Shown: piece by piece, positions 3,499 through 53,104 of the stretch
Layout: each line of letters starts with the position of its first letter
Numbering within the stretch: the first letter of the stretch is position 1
From: Dehalococcoidales bacterium
GTDB lineage: Bacteria; Chloroflexota; Dehalococcoidia; Dehalococcoidales; BS750m-G39
Length of the DNA: 55,996 nucleotides
Assembly (NCBI GenBank): GCA_023129255.1
Contig: JAGMCH010000044.1
Location: 1 to 55,996, forward strand
Direction: 5' to 3'
The notes under the pieces: generated by a model
Database searches by the model: none
Told to the model about the DNA's origin: nothing
What the model saw: the letters and a program-made list of their open reading frames with translations, nothing else
Translations under genes and position numbers: made by a program

Positions 3499-3625
3499 TT
3501 TATCTACCTCTCCCCCTCCCCCAAAATAAATAAAGGGTGTTTAAGAGGGGCGCTAGCGCCTATGGGGCGGGAGGGTGGGAAGAAAAACAAAAGTTAAAAC
3601 AGGGGAGGTGGGGGTGATAATAAAT
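3499..3625. repeat. mosaic intergenic repeat (partial reverse tail/H2 arm plus a forward G-type half unit)
   Basis: tttatctacctctccccctccccc is a reverse-complement tail plus hairpin arm. gggtgtttaagaggggcgctagcgcc, then GGGGCGGGAGGGTGGG, then aaaacaggggaggtgggggtgataa matches the other copies (see findings). Boundaries are approximate. Confidence 0.7.
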
Positions 3626-4535: not shown

Positions 4536-4699
4536 TAGGGCATACCTTTGTCAGTCTTTTCCAATGTGCCAATCCAATTAACATTGAAATCTTAGTTGTT
4601 GTCCATTTTATGGAAAACTTCAATATTGCGCCTGTGCTCAGTTGCATACCAACACCACGTTCTTCTCAAAAATCGTAACCGCACTTCATAAGCGAGGGT

Positions 4700-4772
4700 A
4701 TCTAAGAGAGGCGGAAGCCCCTCTTTTTTATTATCCCTCCCCCTCTCCCTTGAGGGAGAGGGGGATTAAGGT
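4700..4772 (+). repeat. E-type intergenic repeat (H1 hairpin + T-tract, H2 hairpin, short tail)
   Basis: aagagaggcggaagcccctctttttt is followed by ccctccccctctcccttgagggagagggggattaagg. Confidence 0.75.
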
Positions 4773-4869
4773 CAAAGACTCTTCGAGGAATGAGGTAGAA
4801 TCATTAGACATGAAGTTCTGCCTTAAAGCTGCTATAGTATAAACTTAATTATGTTTTTTACCAGAGTGA

Positions 4870-5784: not shown

Positions 5785-5884
5785 AGGATTGATATTGCTT
5801 GTCAACCTCGCCCCCCTAATTTTATATTTATTAACTATTAACCCCATCCCCTTTGGTTCTTAATAGGGGGTAACTAAGTTTGTA

Positions 5885-6016
5885 GGGTGTTTAAGAGGGG
5901 CGCAAGCCCCTCTTTTTATTATCCTCCCCCTCCCCCTTGAGGGAGAGGGGGATTAAGTCGGGGTCCCCGAAAATCTTGATTTTTGGGGTAAATTAAGGGG
6001 GTGAGGGTGCTATGAT
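5885..6016 (+). repeat. E-type intergenic repeat carrying a 34-nt internal insertion
   Basis: gggtgtttaagaggggcgcaagcccctcttttt, then cctccccctcccccttgagggagagggggattaag, then a 34-nt insert, then attaagggggtgagggtg. Confidence 0.75.
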
Positions 6017-6026
6017 AACTAATGAG

Positions 6027-10203: not shown

Positions 10204-10249
10204 GCCAGTAAGGCTCTACCGGTTTGAGGTGAGGAGGTATAAATAAAGG
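10202..10249 (+). repeat. 48-bp direct repeat, copy 2 (orphan relic of the amrA 3' end)
   Basis: gagccagtaaggctctaccggtttgaggtgaggaggtataaataaagg still reads EPVRLYRFEVRRYK-stop but has no upstream ORF. The TGA of the nuclease ORF straddles its left edge. Confidence 0.9.
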
Positions 10250-10336
10250 GGATAGATTGAAGGGGCGAAGCCCCTCTTACCAAATAATTCCCCCTCTCCT
10301 TTGAAGGAGAGGGGGACACAGGGGGTGAGGATGATT
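10250..10336 (+). repeat. E-type intergenic repeat
   Basis: ggatagattgaaggggcgaagcccctctt, then ccccctctcctttgaaggagaggggg, then acacagggggtgagg, ending 2 nt before the rarA ATG region. Confidence 0.8.
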
Positions 10337-12098: not shown

Positions 12099-12173
<75 letters not shown>

Positions 12174-12681: not shown

Positions 12682-12749
12682 GTCCCCTCCTTATGGTCTA
12701 AAAGCATTTCAAAAGCTGAAATCGCCTAACGCTACTCCCAGATTGTGGA

Positions 12750-12778
12750 ATTCTACAGCCTGCCCAAGTAGTTGTCAA
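12750..12778 (-). promoter_or_regulatory. candidate sigma70-type promoter (TTGACA-17-TAGAAT) for ORF 12280..12681
   Basis: On the minus strand, ttgaca at 12778..12773 and tagaat at 12755..12750. Confidence 0.45.
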
Positions 12779-12790
12779 GGCTACTACACC

Positions 12791-12830
12791 CCCAAAGGTC
12801 GTTGGTTCGAATCCTGCCCCCGCTACCAAG
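12791..12830 (+). pseudogene. duplicated 3' half of tRNA-fMet (att-like relic)
   Basis: cccaaaggtcgttggttcgaatcctgcccccgctaccaag is 38/40 identical to 12136..12175. The two changes disrupt the T stem, and no 5' half is present. Confidence 0.85.
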
Positions 12831-12838
12831 AATGTGAT

Positions 12839-12872
12839 GGGCTAGGCTACATAAGCCTAGCCCTTATTATTT
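12839..12872 (+). terminator. Rho-independent terminator following the tRNA fragment
   Basis: GGGCTAGGCT-5 nt-AGCCTAGCCC followed by TTATTATTT. The T-tract is present only in the plus orientation. Confidence 0.55.
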
Positions 12873-15270: not shown

Positions 15271-15484
15271 TTGACCTCACCCCCCTCTCCCTGTTTTTAA
15301 CCTAGCTCTTATTTCCCACCCAAACCCACCCTACAGGGGCTAGCCCCCTTAACTTCAAGGAGGAGTAAAGCCCCCATATACTTTTTGGAAGGGGGAGTCT
15401 TAGAGGGGCGTCAGCCCCTCTTTTCTATCCCTCCCCCTCTCCCTTGAGGGAGAGGGGGATTAAGGGGGTGAGGGTGATAAAATA
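15271..15484. repeat. composite intergenic repeat: reverse G-type half unit (15271..15350) plus forward E-type unit (15398..15484)
   Basis: ttgacctcacccccctctccctgtttttaa...tttcccacccaaacccaccctacaggggctagccccc is followed by agaggggcgtcagcccctctttt, ccccctctcccttgagggagaggggg and attaagggggtgagggtgataaaat. Confidence 0.8.
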
Positions 15485-15583
15485 AAGATAAACCCTCACC
15501 AGATAGACTTGCCTATGTGATTGGCAATATGCTATGATAAATAGCACTTATACTCAAATCTGGTTTACAGGTTCGGTACTCCA

Positions 15584-17137
15584 ATGACAATGAAGGATAA
15601 ACTGGCAAAATTAGCCGAGCTGGAAAAGCAGGCAAGGGCTGGAGGTGGAGAAAAGCGCATCCAGCAACAGCACGCCAAGGGCAAGCTAACCGCCAGGGAG
15701 AGGATTGACCTTCTCCTTGACCCGGGCAGCTTTGAAGAGCTAGACCCCTTTATTACCCACCGAGCTACCGGATTTGGATTAGCTGAGCGGCAATACCTGG
15801 GTGATGCCGTAGTTGCTGGCTTCGGTAAGATAGATGGCAGAGTTGTTTTCATCTATGCCCAGGACTTCACCGTCTTTGGCGGGACAATATCCGAAGTCTC
15901 AGCCCAGAAGGCTTGCAAGGTTATTGATTTAGCCCTTAGAAAGGGAGCGCCTATAATTGCCATATGGGACTCCGGCGGAGCCCGCATCCAGGAAGGCGTG
16001 ATGAGCCTCTATGGCGTCGGCGAAATACTGCTGCGCAATACCCTATGCTCCGGGGTTATCCCCCAACTATCAGTAGTAATGGGACCCTCTGCCGGGGGGG
16101 CGGTCTACTCACCGGCTATAACCGATTTCGTCTTTATGGTCAAAGGAACCAGTCAGATGTATATCACCGGTCCCGATGTAATCAAGGCAGTTATCAGTAT
16201 CGACATCACTCATGAAGAGCTGGGAGGAGCTAAGACTCATGCCGAGAAGAGCGGGGTGGCTCACTTCATCTCAGAGAGTGAGCCGGACTGCCTGCAGAGC
16301 GTGCGCCGTCTCTTAAGCTTTCTGCCCCAGAACAACAGGGAGACTCCACCAACGATAGCGCCTACTGATGACCCCACCCGAACAGATGAGAACCTGCTCA
16401 ACATCATCCCCGACGAGCCGACCAAGTCTTACGATATGAAACAGATAATCACCAGCGTGGCTGATAATGGTGACTTTATGGAGGTGCACCAGAGCTTTGC
16501 TCCCAACCTGATTACCGGTTTTGCCCGCTTAAATGGCAAAGTGGTAGGGATTGTCGCCCAGCAGCCGGCTTACATGGCGGGCATTATTGATATCAACGCC
16601 TCGGTCAAAGGGGCTAGATTCGTCCGCTTTTGCGATGCCTTCAACATCCCCCTGGTCAGCTTCGTTGACGTCCCCGGCTTCATGCCCGGACCCAAGGAGG
16701 AGCAGGGTGGTATCATCAGGCACGGGGCTAAGTTTATCTACGCCTATGCCGAGTCCACCGTACCCAAGGTTACCGTTATCACCCGCAAGGCTTACGGGGG
16801 CGCCTACATCGTGATGAGCAGTAAACACCTGCGCGGCGATATTAACTATGCCTGGCCTACCGCTGAGATTGCCGTCATGGGCCCGGAGGGGGCAGTAAAT
16901 GTCATCTACCGGGAGGCTATAGCTAAAGCTAAAGACGGAGATAAAACAAGGCAAAAACTGGTCGCTGAATATAAAGAGGGGTTTGCTCACCCTTATCTGG
17001 CAGCAGCCAGGGGTTATATTGATGATGTCATCGACCCGCGGGTAACCCGCCCTAAGCTGATTAGGGCGCTGGAGACGCTTGAGAACCCCAGTGATAGCAC
17101 CCGCCCGCAGAAAAAACACGGGAATATTCCACTGTAA
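15584..17137 (+). CDS. acyl-CoA carboxyltransferase (methylmalonyl-CoA carboxyltransferase 12S / propionyl-CoA carboxylase beta family)
   Basis: 517 aa. N-terminus ...GGGEKRIQQQHAKGKLTARERIDLLLDPGSF.E, with two crotonase-like carboxyltransferase halves typical of the family. Confidence 0.9.
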   Translation: MTMKDKLAKLAELEKQARAGGGEKRIQQQHAKGKLTARERIDLLLDPGSFEELDPFITHRATGFGLAERQYLGDAVVAGFGKIDGRVVFIYAQDFTVFGGTISEVSAQKACKVIDLALRKGAPIIAIWDSGGARIQEGVMSLYGVGEILLRNTLCSGVIPQLSVVMGPSAGGAVYSPAITDFVFMVKGTSQMYITGPDVIKAVISIDITHEELGGAKTHAEKSGVAHFISESEPDCLQSVRRLLSFLPQNNRETPPTIAPTDDPTRTDENLLNIIPDEPTKSYDMKQIITSVADNGDFMEVHQSFAPNLITGFARLNGKVVGIVAQQPAYMAGIIDINASVKGARFVRFCDAFNIPLVSFVDVPGFMPGPKEEQGGIIRHGAKFIYAYAESTVPKVTVITRKAYGGAYIVMSSKHLRGDINYAWPTAEIAVMGPEGAVNVIYREAIAKAKDGDKTRQKLVAEYKEGFAHPYLAAARGYIDDVIDPRVTRPKLIRALETLENPSDSTRPQKKHGNIPL

Positions 17138-17152
17138 AGCGGCAGGGATGAC

Positions 17153-17302
17153 ATGGAGGATAAAAGGAAGTTAACCGCCGCTATTATAGGTGCTATCACT
17201 GCCTACATCCAGATGGAGCAGCCACCTCCTCCGGCATTTCCCAGGGTGAAGCCAGAACCAAAGCCAATCAGTAGAAAATTCCCCGAAGGCGGGAGTAAAT
17301 AA
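17153..17302 (+). CDS. hypothetical 49-aa protein, OadG-like small subunit candidate
   Basis: Not in the ORF track because it is under 60 aa: MEDKRKLTAAIIGAITAYIQMEQPPPPAFPRVKPEPKPISRKFPEGGSK. Its TAA overlaps the ATG of the next gene (TAATG). The N-terminal amphipathic segment resembles small subunits of biotin decarboxylase/transcarboxylase complexes. Confidence 0.45.
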   Translation: MEDKRKLTAAIIGAITAYIQMEQPPPPAFPRVKPEPKPISRKFPEGGSK

Positions 17303-19206
17303 TGGCAAGGGAAAAGACAAAAAAACCGTTAAAAATAACCGACGTTACCTTCCGCGATGGACACCAGTCCTCACTGGCAACGCGAATGCGAACTGAGGAT
17401 ATGGAAGGCATCGCCGAGGAGATGAACAAAGCAGGGTTCTATTCCATGGAGGTCTGGGGTGGTGCCACCTTTGACGTCCCCACCAGATTCCTCAATGAGG
17501 ACCCCTGGGAGAGACCTCGCATCCTTAAAAGGCTGATGCCCGATACCCCCCTCATGATGCTGCTCAGAGGACAGAACCTGGTGGGCTACCGCAACTACGC
17601 CGACGATGTGGTTACTGCCTTCGTGCATCATGCCGCCGAGGTGGGTATTGACATCTTCAGGGTATTTGACGCCGTGAACGACGAGCGTAATTTTGAGACC
17701 AGCCTCAAGGCAATTAAAGAATGCGGTAAGCACGCCCAGCTTTCACTATGCTACTCCCTTACCGAGCCCAAAATGGGGGGGGCGGTATATAACATTGATT
17801 ATTATGTCAATAAAGCGCTTATCCTGGAGAAGATGGGGGCTGACAGCCTGTGCATCAAGGACATGGCCGGGCTTATCTCCCCCGACGATGCCTATAAGCT
17901 GATTACAGCACTTAAAGCAGCGCTAAAGATACCGGTGCACTTGCATACCCACTACACCAGTGGTATGGCATCAATGAGCTGCCTCAAGGCTGTTGAAGCC
18001 GGGGTAGATGTTATTGATACCGCCTTAGCTCCCTTCGCCCTGCGCTCGTCCCACCCGGCTGTTGAACCTATTGTGGTCGCCCTTCAGGGAACTCCCCGAG
18101 ACACCGGGCTTGACCTGGCTCACCTATCTAAATTAGGGCAATACTTTGAATCTATAGCCCCCAAATATCGGGACTTTATGGACACCACCCGGATGGCGGT
18201 CATTGATACCGGGGTGCTGATGCACCAGATTCCGGGAGGTATGATTACCAACCTAGTGGCTCAGCTAAGAGAGGCTGGTGCTCTGGATAGAATTGAAGAG
18301 GTCTATGCTGAATTGCCCCGGGTAAGAAAGGAACTGGGCTACCCACCCCTGGTTACCCCCACCAGCCAGATTGTAGGCATTCAAGCCGTCCAGAATGTCC
18401 TCTTCGGCCGATATAAGATGATATCAGACCAGGTAAAGGACTACTGCTATGGGTTATACGGCAAGTCCCCAGCCCCCATTGACCCCGAGGTGCAGAAGAT
18501 AGTGCTTAAAGGCTATGAACGGGGGGGGACACCCATTACCTGCCGGGCTGCAGATATACTGGAGCCAGAGTTAGACAAAGCCAAAGAGGCGACCAAAGAC
18601 ATTGCTAAGGATATAGGTGATGTGCTCATCTATGCCCTCTATCCCACCACCGGGATGCGCTTCCTGAGGTGGAAATATGGTCTGGAGGACCCACCCCCCG
18701 AGACAAAACCGAAGACCTTGGAGGATGTAAAGCGCGAAGACGAGCTCATCGCCAAGCTGAAAGCTGGTAAGTTGGCGGAGAAAGAAGCTCCACCCAAGAG
18801 GCCAGGCGTTAGAACGTTTAATGTCTATGTTGGCGATGAGGTCTATAGTGTCGGCGTGGAAGCAACCGATGGGCCACCGCCAACTGCGCCACCACCAACT
18901 GCGCCCCCGGTGGCGCCCCCGCCGGCTAAGCCAGCGGAAGAAGTTAAGAAAGTTAAGGAAAAAGCACCACCGCCAGCCGTCGCCAAAGCCAAAGAGACAG
19001 CTATTATCGCCCCCATGCCAGGGATAATAATACGCTATGAGGTAAAGGTGGGCGACGAGGTCAAGGCTAACGATGTGGTGGTTATCCTGGAAGCAATGAA
19101 AATGGCTAACGCCATAACCACCCCGGTTGGCGGACGGGTTAAAGCCATAAATTTCGCCACCGGCGATAAAGTAGCTAGAGACGATGTCCTGGCAGTAATC
19201 GGCTAG
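17302..19206 (+). CDS. oxaloacetate decarboxylase alpha / pyruvate carboxylase subunit B / transcarboxylase 5S type carboxyltransferase fused to a biotinyl carrier domain
   Basis: FRDGHQS (HMGL-like TIM barrel), a conserved PYC_OADA region, a Pro/Ala linker PPPTAPPPTAPPVAPPPAKP, and a C-terminal biotinylation motif EAMKM. Confidence 0.9.
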   Translation: MAREKTKKPLKITDVTFRDGHQSSLATRMRTEDMEGIAEEMNKAGFYSMEVWGGATFDVPTRFLNEDPWERPRILKRLMPDTPLMMLLRGQNLVGYRNYADDVVTAFVHHAAEVGIDIFRVFDAVNDERNFETSLKAIKECGKHAQLSLCYSLTEPKMGGAVYNIDYYVNKALILEKMGADSLCIKDMAGLISPDDAYKLITALKAALKIPVHLHTHYTSGMASMSCLKAVEAGVDVIDTALAPFALRSSHPAVEPIVVALQGTPRDTGLDLAHLSKLGQYFESIAPKYRDFMDTTRMAVIDTGVLMHQIPGGMITNLVAQLREAGALDRIEEVYAELPRVRKELGYPPLVTPTSQIVGIQAVQNVLFGRYKMISDQVKDYCYGLYGKSPAPIDPEVQKIVLKGYERGGTPITCRAADILEPELDKAKEATKDIAKDIGDVLIYALYPTTGMRFLRWKYGLEDPPPETKPKTLEDVKREDELIAKLKAGKLAEKEAPPKRPGVRTFNVYVGDEVYSVGVEATDGPPPTAPPPTAPPVAPPPAKPAEEVKKVKEKAPPPAVAKAKETAIIAPMPGIIIRYEVKVGDEVKANDVVVILEAMKMANAITTPVGGRVKAINFATGDKVARDDVLAVIG

Positions 19207-19247
19207 CCATCTAACCGAGCACAAATAGTCCATTTAGCAAGGCTTAC

Positions 19248-20501
19248 GTGGGTAAAACATTAGCTGAGAAAATCTTAAGCCAGAAGTCGGGAAGTGACGC
19301 CCGGTCAGGAGATATTATCATTGCCCGGGTGGACCTGGCTTTTGCCCAGGATACTACCGGGCCACTGACGGTAAGGCAATTTCAAGCCTGTAATTTAAAG
19401 CGCCTGGCTGACCCGAAGAAGACCGCCTTGTTCCTTGACCATGCTGCTCCCAGCCCCAACCGCCAGATTTCAAACGACCACCGGCTACTACGCCAGTTTG
19501 CCGGGGAGACCGGCTGCCTTATCTATGATGTTGGCGGTGGCATCTGCCACCAAATTGTGGCTGAAACCCTGGCTAAGCCCGGGGATGTCATCGTCGGTGC
19601 CGATTCCCATACGGTAACCGCCGGCGGTCTGGGGGCTTTTGCCACCGGAATGGGCTCCTCGGATGTGGCTATTGCCTTCGGTCTGGGCAAGACCTGGTTC
19701 CGAGTGCCGGAGAGCATCAAGATAGTGCTCTCAGGGAAATTTAGCCGTGGCGTGGGGGCTAAAGACCTTATCCTCTACCTCATTGGAAACATCGGGGCTG
19801 ACGGCGCTACATACAAAGCGCTGGAGTTCGGCGGCGATGGAGTGAAAAACCTGACCATGTCACAGCGCTTTACCATAGCTAACATGGCGGTAGAAGCCGG
19901 GGCTAAGGTGGGGCTTTTCCCCACCGATAGCACCACCCACGATTATCTGAAGTCACAGGGGCGGGGCGACCACTACCAGCCTTTGTCTGCTGATGATGAC
20001 GCTAGCTATGAAAGGACTATCAATATCGATTTAGCTACTGTTGAACCTTTAGTAGCCAAGCCCCATAATGTAGATAACATCGCTCCGGCAAGAGAGCTTA
20101 AAGGGACTAAAATCCAGCAGGTATTTATTGGCACCTGCACCAACGGACGGCTGGAGGATATAGCTATAGTGGCCGATATGTTGAAGGGGAAAAGACGCCA
20201 TCCAGAAACCAGACTTATAGTTGCCCCGGCTTCGCCGCAGGTTCTGCTGGCGGCTATCAGGGCGGGCTATATCTATAGCCTGGTTGAAGCTGAAGCCATT
20301 ATCCTGCCCCCAGGCTGTGGGGCCTGCCTTGGCCTCCACCAGGGGGTGCTGGCTGATGGTGAATCCTGCCTGTCCACGGCTAACCGAAACTTTAAGGGTC
20401 GGATGGGCAGCCCTGAAGCCTTCATCTATCTGGGCAGCCCGGCTACGGCGGCGGCTACGGCACTAGCCGGCGAAATCACCGACCCCAGAGAGGTAGCTTA
20501 G
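19248..20501 (+). CDS. aconitase-family dehydratase large subunit (LeuC/HacA type)
   Basis: 417 aa, GTG start. GADSHT, CTNGR and GCGACLG cluster-ligand motifs. Confidence 0.85.
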   Translation: MGKTLAEKILSQKSGSDARSGDIIIARVDLAFAQDTTGPLTVRQFQACNLKRLADPKKTALFLDHAAPSPNRQISNDHRLLRQFAGETGCLIYDVGGGICHQIVAETLAKPGDVIVGADSHTVTAGGLGAFATGMGSSDVAIAFGLGKTWFRVPESIKIVLSGKFSRGVGAKDLILYLIGNIGADGATYKALEFGGDGVKNLTMSQRFTIANMAVEAGAKVGLFPTDSTTHDYLKSQGRGDHYQPLSADDDASYERTINIDLATVEPLVAKPHNVDNIAPARELKGTKIQQVFIGTCTNGRLEDIAIVADMLKGKRRHPETRLIVAPASPQVLLAAIRAGYIYSLVEAEAIILPPGCGACLGLHQGVLADGESCLSTANRNFKGRMGSPEAFIYLGSPATAAATALAGEITDPREVA

Positions 20502-20996
20502 ATGATTAGAGGAAGAGCCTCCAAATTTGGCGATAACATCTCAACCGACCATATTACGCCCGGGCGCCTGGCTCACCTGAGAAGCAATCTCCCTGAGCTG
20601 GCAAAACACGTTCTGGAAGATGCCGACCCCACCTTTGCTTCCAGGGTAGAGAAGGGGGACTTCATCGTCGCCGGTAGTAATTTCGGTCTCGGCTCCAGTC
20701 GGGAGCACGCCCCTTTGGTGATAAAAATGGCTGGGGTAAGTGCTATACTGGCTAAATCGGTAGCCCGAATATTTTTTAGAAACGCTATCAACCTGGGACT
20801 GCCGGTGTTAATATGTGATACCGATAACATTGATGACGGGGATGAGCTAGAGGTAGACCTGGCAACGGGTACAGTCAATAATATAACCAAGGCAAACCAG
20901 CTCACCTTCGGCAAGCTCCCCGAGGTCATGCTTCGTATTCTGGATGAAGGTGGGCTCGTCCCCTATATCCAGAAGTATGGCGACTTTAAACTATAA
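20502..20996 (+). CDS. aconitase-family dehydratase small subunit (LeuD/HacB type)
   Basis: 164 aa. GSNFGLGSSREHAP motif. The start abuts the large-subunit stop. Confidence 0.85.
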   Translation: MIRGRASKFGDNISTDHITPGRLAHLRSNLPELAKHVLEDADPTFASRVEKGDFIVAGSNFGLGSSREHAPLVIKMAGVSAILAKSVARIFFRNAINLGLPVLICDTDNIDDGDELEVDLATGTVNNITKANQLTFGKLPEVMLRILDEGGLVPYIQKYGDFKL

Positions 20997-21023
20997 CCCT
21001 GAACTAGGTAAGGAGATAAGTTT

Positions 21024-22118
21024 ATGGCTTACAAGGTCACCCTTATCCCGGGCGATGGAATAGGACCAGAGGTCACTGAAGCTGCCAGGCGGGTTCTGGA
21101 AGCCACCGGCGTCGCTTTCCACTGGGATTTGGCTTATGCCGGTGATGGCGCCCAGGATTTGTTTGGCACGCCTCTCCCTGATTACGTATTTAAGTCTATC
21201 AGGGAAAACAAGGTCGCCCTCAAGGGACCGGTTACCACCCCGGTAGGCTCCGGTTTTAGAAGCGTTAACGTTGCCCTGCGCAAGACGTTAGACCTTTATG
21301 CCTGCCTCCGCCCCTGTAAAACTTACCCCGGAGCCCCCTCCCTATATAAAGATGTAGATATCGTAGTGGTGAGAGAGAACACCGAAGACCTCTACAGTGG
21401 CATTGAGTTTGAGGAGGGGACCCCAGAGGCGGCAAGGTTGCTAGAACTAATCGCTGAGACAACAGGAGACGCAGTCAGAGAGGATTCCGGCTTCAGCCTA
21501 AAAATGATTTCGGAGACATGCAGTCAGAGGATTGTCAGGTTTGCCTTTGATTACGCCCGTGCTCACCAGAGAAAAAGGGTAACCGCAGTGCATAAAGCCA
21601 ATATCATGAAATTCTCCGACGGGCTATTCCTGGCTATCGCCAGAGAGGTTGCCAAAGAATATAAGGACATTGAATTTGATGATGTAATTGTGGATACCCT
21701 GTGTATGCGATTGGTGCGAAGACCGCAGCAATTTGATGTGCTGGTTCTGCCCAATCTTTACGGCGACTTTATCTCTGAGCTATGCGCTGGATTGGTGGGT
21801 GGGCTGGGGCTAGCCCCGGGGGCTAATCTGGGGAATGACATAGTTGTCTTTGAGCCAACTCATGGCAGTGCTCCCAAATATACCGGGCAAAATAAGGTCA
21901 ACCCGATGGCAATGATGCTCTCCGGGGTAATGATGCTGCGCCACCTTGGCGAGACCAAAGCTGCCGATAAGCTGGAGAAAACCATAGCCCAGGTTATCGC
22001 CGAAGGCAAGAACGTCACCTATGATATGAAGCCGAACATACCCAATGCCAAAGTGGTGGGCACCTCACAGGTAGCTGATGCGGTAATTGAAAGACTGAGG
22101 GAGCTAAAAAATACCTAG
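21024..22118 (+). CDS. icd: isocitrate dehydrogenase (short beta-decarboxylating dehydrogenase type)
   Basis: LIPGDGIGPEV and GFRSVNVALRKTLDLYACLRP (the ICDH Ser-x-Asn substrate loop). 364 aa. Confidence 0.8.
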   Translation: MAYKVTLIPGDGIGPEVTEAARRVLEATGVAFHWDLAYAGDGAQDLFGTPLPDYVFKSIRENKVALKGPVTTPVGSGFRSVNVALRKTLDLYACLRPCKTYPGAPSLYKDVDIVVVRENTEDLYSGIEFEEGTPEAARLLELIAETTGDAVREDSGFSLKMISETCSQRIVRFAFDYARAHQRKRVTAVHKANIMKFSDGLFLAIAREVAKEYKDIEFDDVIVDTLCMRLVRRPQQFDVLVLPNLYGDFISELCAGLVGGLGLAPGANLGNDIVVFEPTHGSAPKYTGQNKVNPMAMMLSGVMMLRHLGETKAADKLEKTIAQVIAEGKNVTYDMKPNIPNAKVVGTSQVADAVIERLRELKNT

Positions 22119-23052
22119 CAAAATCAGCATCATTGGCGCTGGAAATGTCGGCGCCTCCTGCGCTCAGCGAATCGCCGAGAGAGGCTATGCTGATATCGTC
22201 CTGGTGGACATCGTCCCCGGCCTGCCTCAGGGCAAAGCGCTGGATATTCTGCAATCGGCGCCTACCCTCAACTTTGATACCAGCATCATGGGAACCAATA
22301 GCTACCAGGAAACCGCCGGCTCCGAGGTAGTCATCATCACCGCCGGCCTGTTCAGAACACCGGGCATGACCCGCGATGAGCTTCTGCTGGCTAATATGAA
22401 AATCGTCGCCGAGGTCACCAGTAACGTAGTCAGCTATTCGCCAGAGTGCATTATCATTATGGTCACCAACCCGCTAGATGCCATGACCTATCTGGCTATT
22501 CAGACCAGTAAGTTCCCCCGAAACAGGGTAATTGGCTTATCTGGCGTCCTGGATGGCGCCCGACTCAGCAGCTTTATCGCCGCCGAGCTTAAGGTATCGG
22601 TGGCAGACATCTCTGCCTGTGTCCTGGGAGCGCATGGCAGAGATATGGTGGTTATCCCCAGGCTGACCACGGTTAAGGGCACACCGCTCACCAAGCTCCT
22701 GCCCCAAGAGACTATTGATAAGCTGGTGGAGCACACCATACTGGGCGGAAGAGAGATTGTAGACCTGCTTAAAACCGGGAGCGCTTTCTATGCCCCGTCG
22801 GCAGCCGTTGCCCGGATGGCGGAGGCTATAGTCCTGGATAAAAAGGAAATCCTGCCCTGCGCCGCTTACCTTCAGGGGGAATACGGTATTAAGGACACCG
22901 TCATCGGTGTGCCGGTAAGGCTGGGCAAAAGTGGCATTGAGCAGATAATAGAATTAGAGCTAACCACCGAGGAAAAGCAAGCCCTGAATAACTCGGCCGA
23001 GGCGGTAAGGAAGCTGGTTAAGGCTATGAAATTGGACCAAAAGGAGGTTTAG
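22111..23052 (+). CDS. mdh: malate dehydrogenase (LDH-like family); non-canonical ATA start inferred
   Basis: ORF-track piece starts at 22204 (an internal Val). The frame is open from 22108 and encodes (ATA)PSKISIIGAGNVGASCAQRIAERGYADIVLVD, the obligatory Rossmann motif. There is no ATG/GTG/TTG in frame in 22108..22203. GAGGGAG lies about 8 nt upstream of the ATA. Confidence 0.8.
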   Translation: MPSKISIIGAGNVGASCAQRIAERGYADIVLVDIVPGLPQGKALDILQSAPTLNFDTSIMGTNSYQETAGSEVVIITAGLFRTPGMTRDELLLANMKIVAEVTSNVVSYSPECIIIMVTNPLDAMTYLAIQTSKFPRNRVIGLSGVLDGARLSSFIAAELKVSVADISACVLGAHGRDMVVIPRLTTVKGTPLTKLLPQETIDKLVEHTILGGREIVDLLKTGSAFYAPSAAVARMAEAIVLDKKEILPCAAYLQGEYGIKDTVIGVPVRLGKSGIEQIIELELTTEEKQALNNSAEAVRKLVKAMKLDQKEV

Positions 23053-23404: not shown

Positions 23405-23522
23405 AGAGAGTCAAAGAGAGGCTTCGCCTCTCTTATACAACTACTTCCCCCTCCCTTACAAGGGAGGGGGATAAAGGGGGAGGGTTGCTAAGTAAAATAT
23501 CCAAGGCGGTGAGGTAGATAAA
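23405..23522 (+). repeat. E-type intergenic repeat with a second tail copy
   Basis: gagagtcaaagagaggcttcgcctctctt, then ccccctcccttacaagggaggggg, then ataaagggggaggg, then ggcggtgaggtagataaa, ending 4 nt before the ATG at 23527. Confidence 0.75.
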
Positions 23523-24372: not shown

Positions 24373-24545
24373 GGGGTAGATTGAAGGGGCGAAGCCCCCT
24401 CCCCTATCCCTTTTATATCTTTTCCCGCCCGCCACCCTTAAGGAGGGGGATAAAGGGAGAGTTGAAGAGAGGCGAAGCCTCTTTTGGGAGGGTGGGTGGG
24501 AAGAAAGACATAAATTAAAAGCGGGGTGGGGGAAAGGCAACTAAA
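24371..24545. repeat. composite intergenic repeat separating the two fumarase subunit genes
   Basis: aaggggtagattgaaggggcgaagcccc, then a reverse G arm cttttcccgcccgccaccctt, then gaagagaggcgaagcctctttt, then GGGAGGGTGGGTGGGaagaaag, then aaaagcggggtggggg. Confidence 0.8.
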
Positions 24546-24548
24546 AAA

Positions 24549-29480: not shown

Positions 29481-29576
29481 GTCAGAGGGAGTTTGAGAGG
29501 GGCTTCGCCCCTCTTTTTTAATTATCTCCCCCTCTCCTTTGAAGGAGAGGGGGATTAAGGGGGTGAGGTAGATAAA
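29481..29576 (+). repeat. E-type intergenic repeat
   Basis: gtcagagggagtttgagaggggcttcgcccctctttttt, then ccccctctcctttgaaggagaggggg, then attaagggggtgaggtagataaag. Confidence 0.8.
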
Positions 29577-29585
29577 GAATCCCAG

Positions 29586-32599: not shown

Positions 32600-32980
32600 T
32601 TAAAGTCCCCAAAAACCCCCGTCTTTCTTCTTCCTTTTAGCCTTCTTATCTGCAATCTCTTTGGTTTTCTTCTCAAAATAGCTTTGAGGTATTGCCTTTG
32701 CTGGAGGGCCTTTGGCTTTTGTGGCAGGAGTCAGACCATACTTGCGTCTAAACTCACCGTCAGTCATACTGCCCTTTCGGGTGTTGCAAGGCCCACATAT
32801 GAGTTGAAGGTTGCGTATTTTATTCGACCCATCACGACTAATCGGCGTTTTATGGTCAACATGCAAATAAGCTAGACCAAGCTTTCTACCACAGTACATA
32901 CATCGCCCTTTCTGAGAGTCAAACAACAATTTTTGCTCTGTGGTTCCAACATGCTTTCGCCGTGTCTCCCCAAATATCAT
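32600..32980 (-). CDS. HNH endonuclease (small, zinc-finger type)
   Basis: CMYCGRKL...HVDHKTP...N...LICGPCNTRKG (CxxC...HxDH...N...CxxCN). Lys-rich C-terminal tail. AT-richer than the flanking nuo genes. Confidence 0.85.
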   Translation of the reverse strand: MIFGETRRKHVGTTEQKLLFDSQKGRCMYCGRKLGLAYLHVDHKTPISRDGSNKIRNLQLICGPCNTRKGSMTDGEFRRKYGLTPATKAKGPPAKAIPQSYFEKKTKEIADKKAKRKKKDGGFWGL

Positions 32981-33197
32981 ATCTACCTCACCCCCTGTAT
33001 CCCCCTCTCCTTCAAAGGAGAGGGGGAGGGATTTTTTGTAAGAGGGGCTTCGCCTCTCTCTAACTCTCCTTTAACCTTTTCTCCCCCCCCAAGGAGAAGA
33101 GTCTTTAGAGAAGGGGCTTCGCCCCCTCTCTTCCCTTCACTCCCCCTTCCCTTGGTAAGGGAAGGGGGTCAGGGGGATAGGTTGCTAGATAATCTCC
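32981..33197. repeat. two E-type repeats in inverted, tail-out orientation between nuoL and the HNH gene
   Basis: The reverse unit at 32981..33062 has its tail ggtgaggtagat abutting the HNH ATG. The forward unit at 33100..33195 reads agagaaggggcttcgccccctctct, ctcccccttcccttggtaagggaaggggg, tcagggggataggttgctagataa. Confidence 0.8.
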
Positions 33198-35093: not shown

Positions 35094-35287
35094 TACAGCT
35101 TCCTCAATACCTCCTGTATCACGTGCTCCTTATCCTGGGGCACCAGGATAGAATAGGTAGCCATTTCCCTGTCCCGGGGCTCACCGGAGGCGGGCAGGAT
35201 GCGGGCGGGTATTCCCTCACCCTCAAACATTTCCTTCCACATCTCAGCCATCATCAGGCTATTTGCTTTTTTAACCTCTATCCACAT
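35093..35287 (-). CDS. DUF2007-like small protein embedded in the nuo operon
   Basis: 64 aa. The pattern (N..MAEMWKEMFEGEGIPARIL...ILVPQDKEHVIQEVL) resembles the putative signal-transducing DUF2007 fold. Its TAA overlaps the nuoL ATG (TAATG). Confidence 0.5.
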   Translation of the reverse strand: MWIEVKKANSLMMAEMWKEMFEGEGIPARILPASGEPRDREMATYSILVPQDKEHVIQEVLRKL

Positions 35288-35307
35288 CTTGGGTCTCCTA
35301 TATTCTT

Positions 35308-35432
35308 TACCACCTCACCCCCTGTATCCCCCGTTTTCAGTTGTCTTTCTTCCCACTCCAGCCCACCCTCATAGGCTTCTCACCCCTCCTAATACACCTC
35401 TAAGGGTGGCGGGTGGGAAAAGATTTAAAATG
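35308..35432. repeat. G-type repeat unit with inverted arms (degenerate)
   Basis: A reverse tail cacctcaccccctgtatcccccgttttcag, then ttcttcccactccagcccaccctcatagg, a centre, and ctaagggtggcgggtgggaaaagattt. Confidence 0.7.
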
Positions 35433-35439
35433 CCCGATT

Positions 35440-35586
35440 TTAGCTCAAGGCCCAACCTAAATATAGCGGCCAAACCACGATGCCCAGAATGATCTTCCAC
35501 CAGACCAGACCGGCAAAGCTGATGGTGAAGAGCCAGCCCATGAACCAGATCATTGCACCCGTTGCACCCGCTGTACCCTTGTTCAT
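35440..35586 (-). CDS. hypothetical 48-aa membrane protein
   Basis: Not in the ORF track because it is under 60 aa: MNKGTAGATGAMIWFMGWLFTISFAGLVWWKIILGIVVWPLYLGWALS. GGAGG lies 7 nt upstream. It starts 13 nt after the nuoK stop. Confidence 0.5.
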   Translation of the reverse strand: MNKGTAGATGAMIWFMGWLFTISFAGLVWWKIILGIVVWPLYLGWALS

Positions 35587-35599
35587 AGTTTTGCCTCCT

Positions 35600-40644: not shown

Positions 40645-40685
40645 GAGGTTTGGACATTGGAAAGTAAGTTTTGACTTAAGTAATT

Positions 40686-40822
40686 TCACCCTATAGGGGT
40701 TGGCACCCCTCTTAAACATCCCCTAAGGTGGAGATAAAAGCAAAGCCTTATAGAGCGGGAGGAAAACTTAATGGGTGGGAGGGTGGGAAAAAAGAGATAA
40801 TTTAAAAGTGGGGGGTGGGGAC
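40686..40822 (+). repeat. G-type repeat unit (left arm truncated) with tail
   Basis: tttcaccctataggggttggcacccctcttaaacatcccc...caaagccttatagagcggga...GGGTGGGAGGGTGGGaaaaaag...aaaagtggggggtgggg is homologous to 46793..46907. Confidence 0.8.
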
Positions 40823-40915
40823 AATGCCGCCCATATTGACCTTATCCCAATAACCAAATATCATAATGAATTGACAATATAGGCTAAAACTGGCTATTAT
40901 CCAGGAGCAAGATAG

Positions 40916-46737: not shown

Positions 46738-46792
46738 TCTACTGAAGGTAATTGTAACAAGATTGGCACTGGGGCGCAATCTTTGGGTCTTA

Positions 46793-46907
46793 CTTCCCAC
46801 CCTCCCACCCTAAAGGGGTTAGCACCCTCTTACACACTCCCTTAAAACAGGGGGTTAAGGACAAAGCCTTTGAGGGCGGGTTGGGTGGGAAAAAAACTTA
46901 ATGGGGG
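46793..46907 (+). repeat. complete G-type repeat unit bounded by inverted G4-type arms
   Basis: cttCCCACCCTCCCACCCtaaaggggttagcaccctcttacacactcccttaaaacagggggttaaggacaaagcctttgaGGGCGGGTTGGGTGGGaaaaaaacttaatggggg. It abuts the 3' end of tRNA-Ala. Confidence 0.85.
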
Positions 46908-46983
46908 TGGTGGAGCTGGGGGGATTCGAACCCCCTACCTTTTGACTGCCAGTCAAACGTTCTCCCAATTGAACTACAGCCCC
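46908..46983 (-). tRNA. tRNA-Ala (GGC)
   Basis: Hand-folded from the reverse complement: GGGGCTG acceptor with a G3-U70 pair, CTGGCAG anticodon loop, GGGGG/CCCCC T stem with TTCGAAT, and an encoded CCA. Confidence 0.9.
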
Positions 46984-52911: not shown

Positions 52912-53050
52912 TTGACCCCACACCCTCCCTGTTTTTAGTCGTCTTTTTCCCCTACCCACCCACCCTCAAAGGCTTTGCCCCTAAATTCCTATCTTTATTG
53001 GGTGAAGAGGGGCACCAGCCCCTATAGGGCGGGAGGGTGGGAAGGGGTTA
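52912..53050 (-). repeat. complete G-type repeat unit, inverted relative to 46793..46907, with a reverse tail
   Basis: ttgaccccacaccctccctgtttttag...tttttCCCCTACCCACCCACCCtcaaaggctttgcccc...gaagaggggcaccagcccctataGGGCGGGAGGGTGGGaagg. Confidence 0.85.
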
Positions 53051-53075: not shown

Positions 53076-53104
53076 TTGACAATTAATATCTGCTTCATTA
53101 TAAT
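53076..53104 (+). promoter_or_regulatory. consensus sigma70 promoter (TTGACA-17-TATAAT) upstream of pyrG
   Basis: ttgaca at 53076..53081, a 17-nt spacer, and tataat at 53099..53104. The pyrG ATG lies about 92 nt downstream. Confidence 0.6.

Follow-up and report, generated by a model that had tools for sequence, protein, structure and literature searches.

We have analysed a stretch of 55,996 nt from a Dehalococcoidales bacterium (contig JAGMCH010000044.1 of GenBank assembly GCA_023129255.1, here taken whole and called the window), in which an earlier note, made from the letters alone, had described a G-type unit at 46793-46907 as an element resembling a miniature inverted-repeat transposable element (MITE). 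With a probability of roughly 0.6, the focal unit consists of two modules, placed head to head, that belong to a mosaic family of palindromic, non-coding intergenic repeats found in certain lineages of Dehalococcoidia. On its sequence features the family would be best filed as a hairpin-forming, G-quadruplex-armed version of the mosaic repeats of the REP, BIME and BoxC type, and not as a MITE defined by terminal inverted repeats (TIRs) and target-site duplications (TSDs). The family is expanded in some lineages only, and whole modules or composites have been gained or lost at orthologous intergenic sites without TSD. We infer that it acts as selfish or neutral non-autonomous DNA, much as REP, BIME, REPIN and BoxC elements do.

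The focal unit (46794..46891) lies between the 3' end of a tRNA-Ala gene and the leuS promoter and is composed of two half-units arranged head to head, with their hairpins inward and their G-run arms outward. The plus strand at 46793-46895 reads as the earlier note had described for its arm-bounded unit, running from CTTCCCACCCTCCCACCC to GGGCGGGTTGGGTGGGAAAAAAAC by way of a small hairpin, then a variable core, then another hairpin that is degenerate. The left arm, TTCCCACCCTCCCACCC, occupies 46794-46810 and the right arm, GGGCGGGTTGGGTGGGAA, 46874-46891; the inverted ends, thought to extend over 20-25 nt, are actually a G-run/C-run core of 15-17 nt that the loop positions interrupt. With a profile based on 83 half-units, an nhmmer search of the window resolves the unit into an alpha half-unit on the minus strand (46783..46833, E=5e-11) and a beta half-unit on the plus strand (46852..46901, E=7e-7). 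In the former, the hairpin GGGT-gcta-ACCC precedes the arm, which reads GGGTGGGAGGGTGGGAA on the minus strand, and GTAAGAC follows it; in the latter, a degenerate hairpin, AAGGacaaagCCTT, precedes the arm and AAAAAC..GGGGGTGG follows it, adjoining the CCA end of tRNA-Ala(GGC) (46908..46983, minus strand), an end that is 6 nt from the last position of the beta profile match and 16 nt from the G-run arm. On its other side the unit ends ∼4-8 nt upstream of the -35 box of a leuS promoter-like sequence, TTGCGC-N17-TACAAT (46751..46779, minus strand), which was read from the sequence, the consensus scan calling no promoter there, and which is kept in relatives both with and without the upstream unit.

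Alignment of the 83 arms with their flanks indicates that the repeated module is the half-unit, ∼75-95 nt in length, in which a conserved order is observed: a GC-rich hairpin, a spacer N2-3, a four-G-run arm followed by AA, then GAAAAAC, N6, TAAAA and finally GGGG..GGGGGTGA. The arm is 15-19 nt long with four G-runs, (G3N1-3)4, and occurs in three subtypes: alpha, GGGYGGGAGGGTGGGAA; beta, with a central loop of 2-3 nt (TT, CT or TCA); and gamma, GGGYGGYGGGYGGGAA, which is followed by AAGATAT. Two features that the earlier note had read as shared with a second, E-type family of units, namely the GAGGGGC-loop-GCCCCTC hairpin and the AAAAC(A/G)GGGG..GGGGGTGA tails, are borne out. In a per-sequence stem search, a stem of 6 bp or more next to the arm is detected in 57% of half-units and in 13% of shuffles, and many variants of the stem are complementary on both sides (GAGGT/ACCTC, GAAGT/ACTTC, GGGGC/GCCCC, AGGGC/GCCCT), so that compensatory changes keep the small GC-rich stem. 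When half-units are aligned with MAFFT their hairpins fall out of register, and for this reason RNAalifold predicted no structure from the alignment. Folding of the units as single strands pairs the arms, the z-scores for one or both strands being -2.3 to -3.5. At the sequence level the arms conform to the canonical quadruplex motif of four runs of at least 3 G with loops of 1-7 nt, with G4Hunter scores of 2.1-2.5 (GGGTGGGAGGGTGGG and GGGCGGGTTGGGTGGG scoring 2.2-2.4).

The arrangement of neighbouring arms differs from that of a transposon with a repeated terminus. Of the pairs of arms lying within 260 nt of each other, 18 are head to head (a C-arm followed by a G-arm), 15 are direct, with a period of 72-96 nt, and none is tail to tail. 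The two arms of a head-to-head unit are never of the same subtype, nor do they ever share an identical central loop (0 of 18, against 2.6 expected by random pairing). Thus, the 'inverted repeat' of the G-type unit is two different G-run modules placed face to face and not one terminus present twice. Half-units occur alone, in direct tandem and head to head, and are also combined with E-type modules; this variety of module arrangements, together with inverted pairs of two different module types, is that of a BIME-like mosaic. These observations bear directly on the classical MITE, in which the arms would be the TIRs of a deleted insertion sequence (IS) of the DDE type, moved in trans by cut and paste with TSD. 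Inverted arms, both orientations and many copies are as such an element would have them. Against this, the arms of one unit are always heterotypic and its length is variable, 81-177 nt in all but one of the 18 units, which measures 282 nt, so the fixed size of ∼100 nt originally assigned to the unit does not hold. In addition, arms are found singly and in direct tandem, including in a second class of repeats described below, which argues that the arms are module ends rather than the TIRs of one transposon. We consider the classical MITE improbable, and the orthologous sites and the search for a partner enzyme bear on it further.

Filled and empty orthologous intergenic sites are found among close relatives, an insertion polymorphism that is also shared with MITEs. 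In the rsmD/ndhC region (40658-40824), ∼165 nt of unit stand where L122 and L200 have 12-13 unrelated nt, the flanks being conserved around the empty site (L122 is 90% identical to the window in nucleotides), while L020, 78% identical to the window, carries a full unit at the same place. L108 contains a composite of 216 nt including both tails where L039 has 5 nt. In the leuS-proC spacer, which is only 7-18 nt long at seven other loci, L139 holds a gamma half-unit and an E-type unit, and because L159 holds only the E-type part of this insert, the 82-nt gamma half-unit has evidently been gained or lost on its own. A block of 309 nt comprising the unit at 35338..35429 and a small ORF is missing in L200. 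The focal tRNA-Ala site is itself polymorphic, being filled in the window, in L207 (92% LeuRS identity) and in L126 (87%), and empty in L121 (92%). No TSD is visible at any filled/empty junction, at a resolution limited by flank identities of 75-91%, which speaks against cut-and-paste transposition. A duplicated CCCAAAGA in L126 was considered as a TSD and rejected, as it is the scar left where a radical-SAM gene, which L207 and L121 still have, was lost. These two relatives come from sister samples and carry the gene between tRNA-Ala and leuS in opposite orientations (L121 1369-3001, L207 866-2501); in the window it is lost altogether.

A partner enzyme was sought in the window and in 1.7 Mb of related DNA. 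The Pfam scan detects no transposase domain in the ∼58 ORFs of the window, in agreement with the earlier note, and no IS or transposase with ends matching the arms, such as that note had envisaged, is found in the 1.7 Mb. No arm-bounded ORF encodes a transposase: when autonomous elements were looked for as ORFs between arms 350-3500 nt apart, the candidates were housekeeping genes or a single-copy, unannotated protein of 195 aa with no Pfam match, and were rejected. For Y1 and RAYT enzymes, tblastn with IS608 TnpA and the E. coli RAYT returned nothing below E=1 in the 1.7 Mb, which is a weak test. Combined with the sites above, three of the four MITE properties tested are lacking (matching TIRs, TSD and homogeneous length) and one, insertion polymorphism, is present. 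The MITE-like interpretation therefore stands in part, for multiple copies, both orientations, insertion polymorphism and lineage-specific density, and falls for fixed size, TSD, matching termini and a parent IS. Two further features of the window deserve mention. A gene for a 126-aa HNH endonuclease (32600-32980, minus strand) is located within the NADH dehydrogenase operon between nuoL-like and nuoM-like genes, directly after an E-type tail, and is missing at the same place in L200; its homologues (45-68% identity) occur in varied contexts, by an integrase in L213 and by DDE transposases in L218. As a mobilising enzyme it was rejected, since none of these repeats lie close to its homologues elsewhere. 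Separately, the last 38 nt of tRNA-Met (12099-12173) are repeated ∼655 bp downstream (12790-12830) as CCCAAAGGTCG..GGTTCGAATCCTGCCCCCGCTACCAAG followed by a terminator hairpin, a duplication resembling the attL/attR scar that a small integrated element would leave; an unannotated minus-strand ORF of 133 aa lies between the two repeats.

Copies of the family extend well beyond the window, and their abundance depends on lineage. The closest LeuRS relatives of the window (83-92% identity) are very numerous in sediment metagenomes, the named ones being Dehalococcoidales or Chloroflexota. A scan of 185,579 species-representative genomes (596 Gb) for TTCCCACCCTCCCRCCC yielded at least 119 loci, where ∼140 chance matches are expected in 596 Gb. 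Among the matches listed, ∼75 of 119 loci fall in metagenome-assembled genomes (MAGs) of Dehalococcoidia type, several with 3-9 matches each, the others being isolated single matches, many of them in genomes of high GC content such as Streptomyces. Further copies were thus found, as the earlier note had anticipated, in many independent Dehalococcoidia assemblies. The ∼75 loci include three MAGs labelled 'Deltaproteobacteria bacterium' (bin.571, CSMAG_2238 and CSMAG_1231) that carry the same Dehalococcoidales repeat family, at loci L011, L013, L022, L027, L034, L035, L039, L045, L046, L054, L057, L064, L076, L087, L095, L102 and L111. One of these loci, L057 (CSMAG_1231), aligns to housekeeping genes of the window (16217-23022) with 76% identity over 6.6 kb, and on sequence grounds the label of the three MAGs is probably wrong.

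Copy density was determined in loci anchored on leuS and chosen irrespective of repeats. The window has 19.6 half-units per 100 kb, whereas relatives whose LeuRS is 86% or more identical have 9.7, those at 79-85% have 0.5 and those below 79% have none; near-identical copies are nevertheless abundant in other Dehalococcoidales MAGs. Such a lineage-specific expansion would also be compatible with a MITE. Patchy and expansion-like as it is, the distribution of copies speaks for proliferation of a selfish or neutral kind, and it speaks against a host signal of universal use. A second composite repeat, class II, occurs in other Dehalococcoidia (L005, L023, L029, L030, L072, L075, L094, L107 and L113; among its carriers N6_292, SPRUCE 186 and MFD03726). 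It has different hairpins, CAGAGGGGG..CCCCCTCTG and CAGGGGGTGTCCCCCTG, which are followed by the same alpha arm with GAAAGAC and by a third hairpin, GGCGACAACGCC, and it is present mostly as single or direct tandem copies. A gene start at the ATG behind the class II arm was rejected, as this codon opens short ORFs only.

Within the window, the arm pattern GGGNGGGNGGGTGGGAA with at most 2 mismatches has 7 matches where 0.35 are expected, a number reached by none of 100 shuffles. The profile detects 11 half-units. They make up four head-to-head units and three copies that are solitary or truncated, and the seven loci concerned are precisely those of the earlier note. All 11 fall outside called genes; since noncoding DNA makes up only about a tenth of the window, this placement is not due to chance. 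The homologue in opposite orientation that had been reported near 52949..53041 is a second complete unit (52947..53043; half-units 52950-52985, minus strand, and 53006-53044, plus strand), with a beta-like arm at 52947-52965, an alpha arm at 53027-53043 and the hairpin GAGGGGCaccaGCCCCT at 53007-53023, and it sits between a NUDIX promoter-like site (52910-52882, minus strand) and a perfect pyrG promoter (53076-53104). A unit of gamma and alpha-like type (24407..24518; half-units 24407-24446, minus, and 24460-24518, plus) has its gamma arm at 24421-24436 (minus sense) and its alpha-like arm at 24486-24502 and lies between the genes for the alpha and beta subunits of fumarase, where the 176-nt spacer (24373-24548) is filled by a composite of an E-type hairpin and the G-type unit. 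The unit of a degenerate beta arm and a gamma arm at 35338..35429 (half-units 35338-35378, minus, and 35393-35429, plus; gamma arm 35403-35419) lies between two small minus-strand ORFs. These unannotated ORFs, located upstream of the nuoL-like gene, are 35094-35299 (68 aa) and ∼35440-35592 (∼50 aa), the latter looking membrane-embedded and being part of the 309-nt block missing in L200. At 40686..40820 (plus strand; half-unit 40767-40805, plus), the left arm is reduced to TTTCACCC, while an internal hairpin, the alpha arm (40773-40789) and the tail TTTAAAAGTGGGGGGTGGGG are kept. The remaining two copies are solitary: an alpha half-unit with its tail at 3540..3615 (plus; profile match 3540-3597), in which the hairpin GAGGGGCGCTAGCGCC precedes the arm at 3565-3581 and GAAAAAC..GTTAAAACAGGGGAGGTGGGGGTGA follows, and a beta half-unit with its tail at 15277..15352 (minus; profile match 15297-15352), which reads CCTCACCCCCCTCTCCCTGTTTTTAAC..TTTCCCACCCAAACCCACCC plus hairpin and adjoins an E-type unit.

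The positions of these copies relative to genes could suggest a function for the host at the DNA level, in which negative supercoiling would let the arms adopt a G-quadruplex, i-motif or cruciform, or a nucleoid or gyrase-like protein would bind them, and the units would serve as spacers or insulators upstream of promoters. BIMEs of E. coli play such a part for gyrase and IHF, and binding by gyrase, IHF or Pol I is counted among the traits of BIME-like mosaics. Of the seven loci of the window, four are in divergent regions between genes. The copies at leuS, the NUDIX gene and rsmD end 4-17 nt upstream of the -35 box, and the pyrG promoter lies 32 nt past its unit. A host element would also be in keeping with canonical (G3N1-3)4 arms of high G4Hunter score, with G-runs that are kept while loops vary, with conservation of the same arm in two different composite repeats across the class and with the persistence of a copy at one site in genomes 77% identical. 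The positional evidence does not extend to the broader sample. Over all loci the context equals background, with 22 divergent, 32 co-directional and 16 convergent regions, the arms facing gene starts 40 times and gene ends 30 times, and a reading of the unit as a promoter element was therefore rejected for want of any bias towards gene starts; one of the 'divergent' cases suggested by the window was an artefact of ORF calling. Moreover, close relatives lack copies at the same promoters with the promoter sequence unchanged, density is zero below 79% LeuRS identity, and the G-run invariance is partly an ascertainment effect. A role as host cis-element is consequently doubtful. The leuS upstream region itself differs among relatives: among L127-L146, many have a conserved terminator-like hairpin, GCTCTTCGCC..GGCGGAGGGCTTTTATTTAG, ahead of leuS, frequently right behind tRNA-Ala, and in the window, L121, L122 and L207 a promoter ∼13 nt from the leuS ATG takes the place of this hairpin. 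A T-box leader upstream of leuS in the relatives was rejected, as neither a T-box nor any other Rfam match was obtained.

An action at the RNA level, the transcribed unit folding into a long stem that would serve as a terminator, a stabiliser of mRNA 3' ends or a small RNA, appears very unlikely. There is precedent in the REP sequence of the mal operon, which is an mRNA 3'-end stabiliser, and the units fold strongly on both strands, with hairpin stems that are compensatory, G-T pairs included. The focal unit follows a tRNA gene, and the unit in the fumarase spacer must be transcribed if the two subunit genes form an operon, co-transcription of these genes being expected. However, a T-run lies 5' of the long stem and an A-run 3' of it, opposite to the layout of an intrinsic terminator, so the unit is not one, and the terminator scan finds none in it. 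Orientation relative to genes is unbiased, and most of the window copies lie upstream of promoters, where they would not be transcribed. Nor is there a matching Rfam family: in the window only two tRNAs reach the gathering score, and no G-type unit is matched even at E<=5, other matches at that threshold being at chance level (two miRNA models at E-type units and radC RNA at 12729-12867).

Combined, these results favour a mosaic repeat family that proliferates as selfish or neutral DNA. Its spread would probably rely on the folding of single-stranded DNA into a hairpin, long stem, G-quadruplex or i-motif. Such structures may be the target of an unlinked enzyme, or recombination or slippage during replication may resolve them. 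Copies would persist only at harmless places, just upstream of -35 boxes, behind tRNA genes and terminators, or between cistrons. Several observations weigh against this interpretation. The Pfam scan of the window and the search of 1.7 Mb of related DNA identify no mobilising enzyme, and the junction flanks, 75-91% identical, are too diverged to tell insertion from deletion. The window and L020 (∼77% identical) share a copy at one site, and copies at the same site in genomes so diverged indicate long persistence, perhaps through selection for some function in the host. The alpha arm with GAAAGAC is nearly identical in the quite different composite repeat of other Dehalococcoidia, and a conserved host factor could explain the shared arm as well as a conserved transposase would. 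The arms, finally, were collected partly by regular expression, as a result of which the invariance of their G-runs appears inflated.

A bolder proposal, to which we give little credence at present, is that the four-G-run arms and their C-rich complements are the core of a previously unrecognised structure-specific system with the quadruplex or i-motif as its signal. Its reader would be either a dedicated mobilising enzyme, which would make the units G4-dependent non-autonomous mobile DNA, or a host protein using them as supercoil-sensitive insulators upstream of promoters. If this were true, the near-identical alpha arm of two otherwise unrelated composite repeats would mark a conserved binding site. 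Dehalococcoidia are abundant, mostly uncultured subsurface bacteria whose non-coding DNA is essentially undescribed, and a full-text literature search returned no paper joining Dehalococcoidia with 'repetitive extragenic' or 'G-quadruplex'. The family is usable as a strain-typing marker and is a likely cause of assembly breaks in Dehalococcoidia MAGs. It also offers a natural system in which to ask how REP- and BoxC-like repeats without a known transposase spread and whether G4 DNA matters in bacteria.

The E-type units with which G-type modules are combined consist of two parts: a terminator-like hairpin, GAGGGGC-loop-GCCCCTC, with a T-run, followed by CCCTCTCC-loop-GGAGAGGGGG-loop-GGGGGTGAGG. 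In the example at 15391..15485 (plus strand), the hairpin is followed by CCCTCTCCC-TTGA-GGGAGAGGGGG-ATTAA-GGGGGTGAGG. Other copies are located at 616-705, 4697-4773, 5884-6018, 10248-10335, 23414-23520, 29486-29580, 32975-33069 (minus strand) and 33101-33190. The tail, GGGGGTGAGGTAGATAA, resembles a Shine-Dalgarno sequence and often abuts a start codon (706, 6022, 10338, 23527 and 32980). In its sequence the E-type unit matches the intrastrand-triplex motif of BoxC/PIT/TMECO repeats with longer stems: the BoxC/TMECO pattern is CCCTCNCCC-N3-6-GGGNGAGGG-N3-GGGNGAGGG (pyrimidine stem, purine stem and mirror third strand with short loops), and a relaxed form of it, which the E-type unit fits, has 5 matches where none is expected. 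The G-type unit fails this pattern, its arms being 50-130 nt apart and its G strand carrying T. A triplex reading of the G-type arms was thus rejected on sequence: because GGGTGGG carries T where a purine strand is needed and the arms are far apart, the arm is of the quadruplex type and not a canonical triplex motif.

Known repeat systems resemble the family to different degrees. The bacterial MITEs Correia, ERIC, RUP and Nezha are ∼100-200 nt long with terminal inverted repeats. They share with the family their size, inverted ends, intergenic and non-coding nature, both orientations and insertion polymorphism; the family differs in its lack of TSD, its variable length and heterotypic ends, its half-elements and tandem arrays, and in having no known parent IS. 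Quadruplex-forming simple repeats, tandem heptamers enriched in Xanthomonas and Nostoc (PMC4692102), likewise represent a genome-wide enrichment of G4-capable repeat DNA in particular lineages, whereas here one four-run motif is present per dispersed composite module.

BoxC/PIT/TMECO repeats, which form intrastrand triplexes, are described from E. coli and other Proteobacteria in 262 proteobacterial genomes (Holder et al. 2015, PMC4666352). TMECO elements are intergenic, unbiased in orientation and unlinked to transposons or other mobile elements, and often occur as inverted pairs that always join two different subtypes (A+B), at loci unusually variable between strains (PMC4666352). G-run/C-run repeats of 35-60 nt, always intergenic, with no orientation bias and no transposon link, are a likeness, as are the heterotypic inverted pairs and variable loci common to TMECO and the G-type family. 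The E-type unit of the window shares the exact 22-mer CCCTCTCCCTTGAGGGAGAGGG with TMECO no. 2, and has as its third strand the same sequence as the G-type tail, GGGGGTGA. The differences are in the spacing of the arms (50-130 nt against 3-6 nt in TMECO), in the T of the G strand (GGGTGGG), where a purine-motif triplex needs a purine strand, and in the host, which is here a member of the Chloroflexota while TMECO is from proteobacterial genomes. Quadruplex-armed mosaic repeats together with a BoxC/TMECO-like motif would thus carry the phenomenon of 'non-B-DNA repeats' beyond Proteobacteria and Cyanobacteria.

The remaining comparison is with REP, BIME and REPIN elements and their RAYT transposases (PMC3733652, PMC2817692, PMC3116915). 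A REP is defined as an imperfect palindrome of 20-40 bp with a GTAG (or CGTC) tag at one end (PMC3733652); a cognate RAYT (Y1/HUH) gene with repeats on either side is a further mark of REP and REPIN systems. The family has neither tag, GTAG at the hairpin-arm junction being found in only 13 of 83 half-units and there 3' of the stem instead of 5'. In addition, its arm is a G-run tract outside the stem-loop, tail-to-tail dimers are missing, the window copies are not preferentially downstream of genes, and no RAYT/Y1 gene was found by the weak tblastn test. Several traits are shared. Both consist of short palindromic modules that occur singly, as inverted dimers (with spacers of 20-100 bp) or in clusters, and in both stems vary by complementary changes, TSDs are absent and copy number is patchy between related strains. 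BIMEs also pair heterotypic REPs in alternating orientation, as the G-type family pairs its different half-units head to head.

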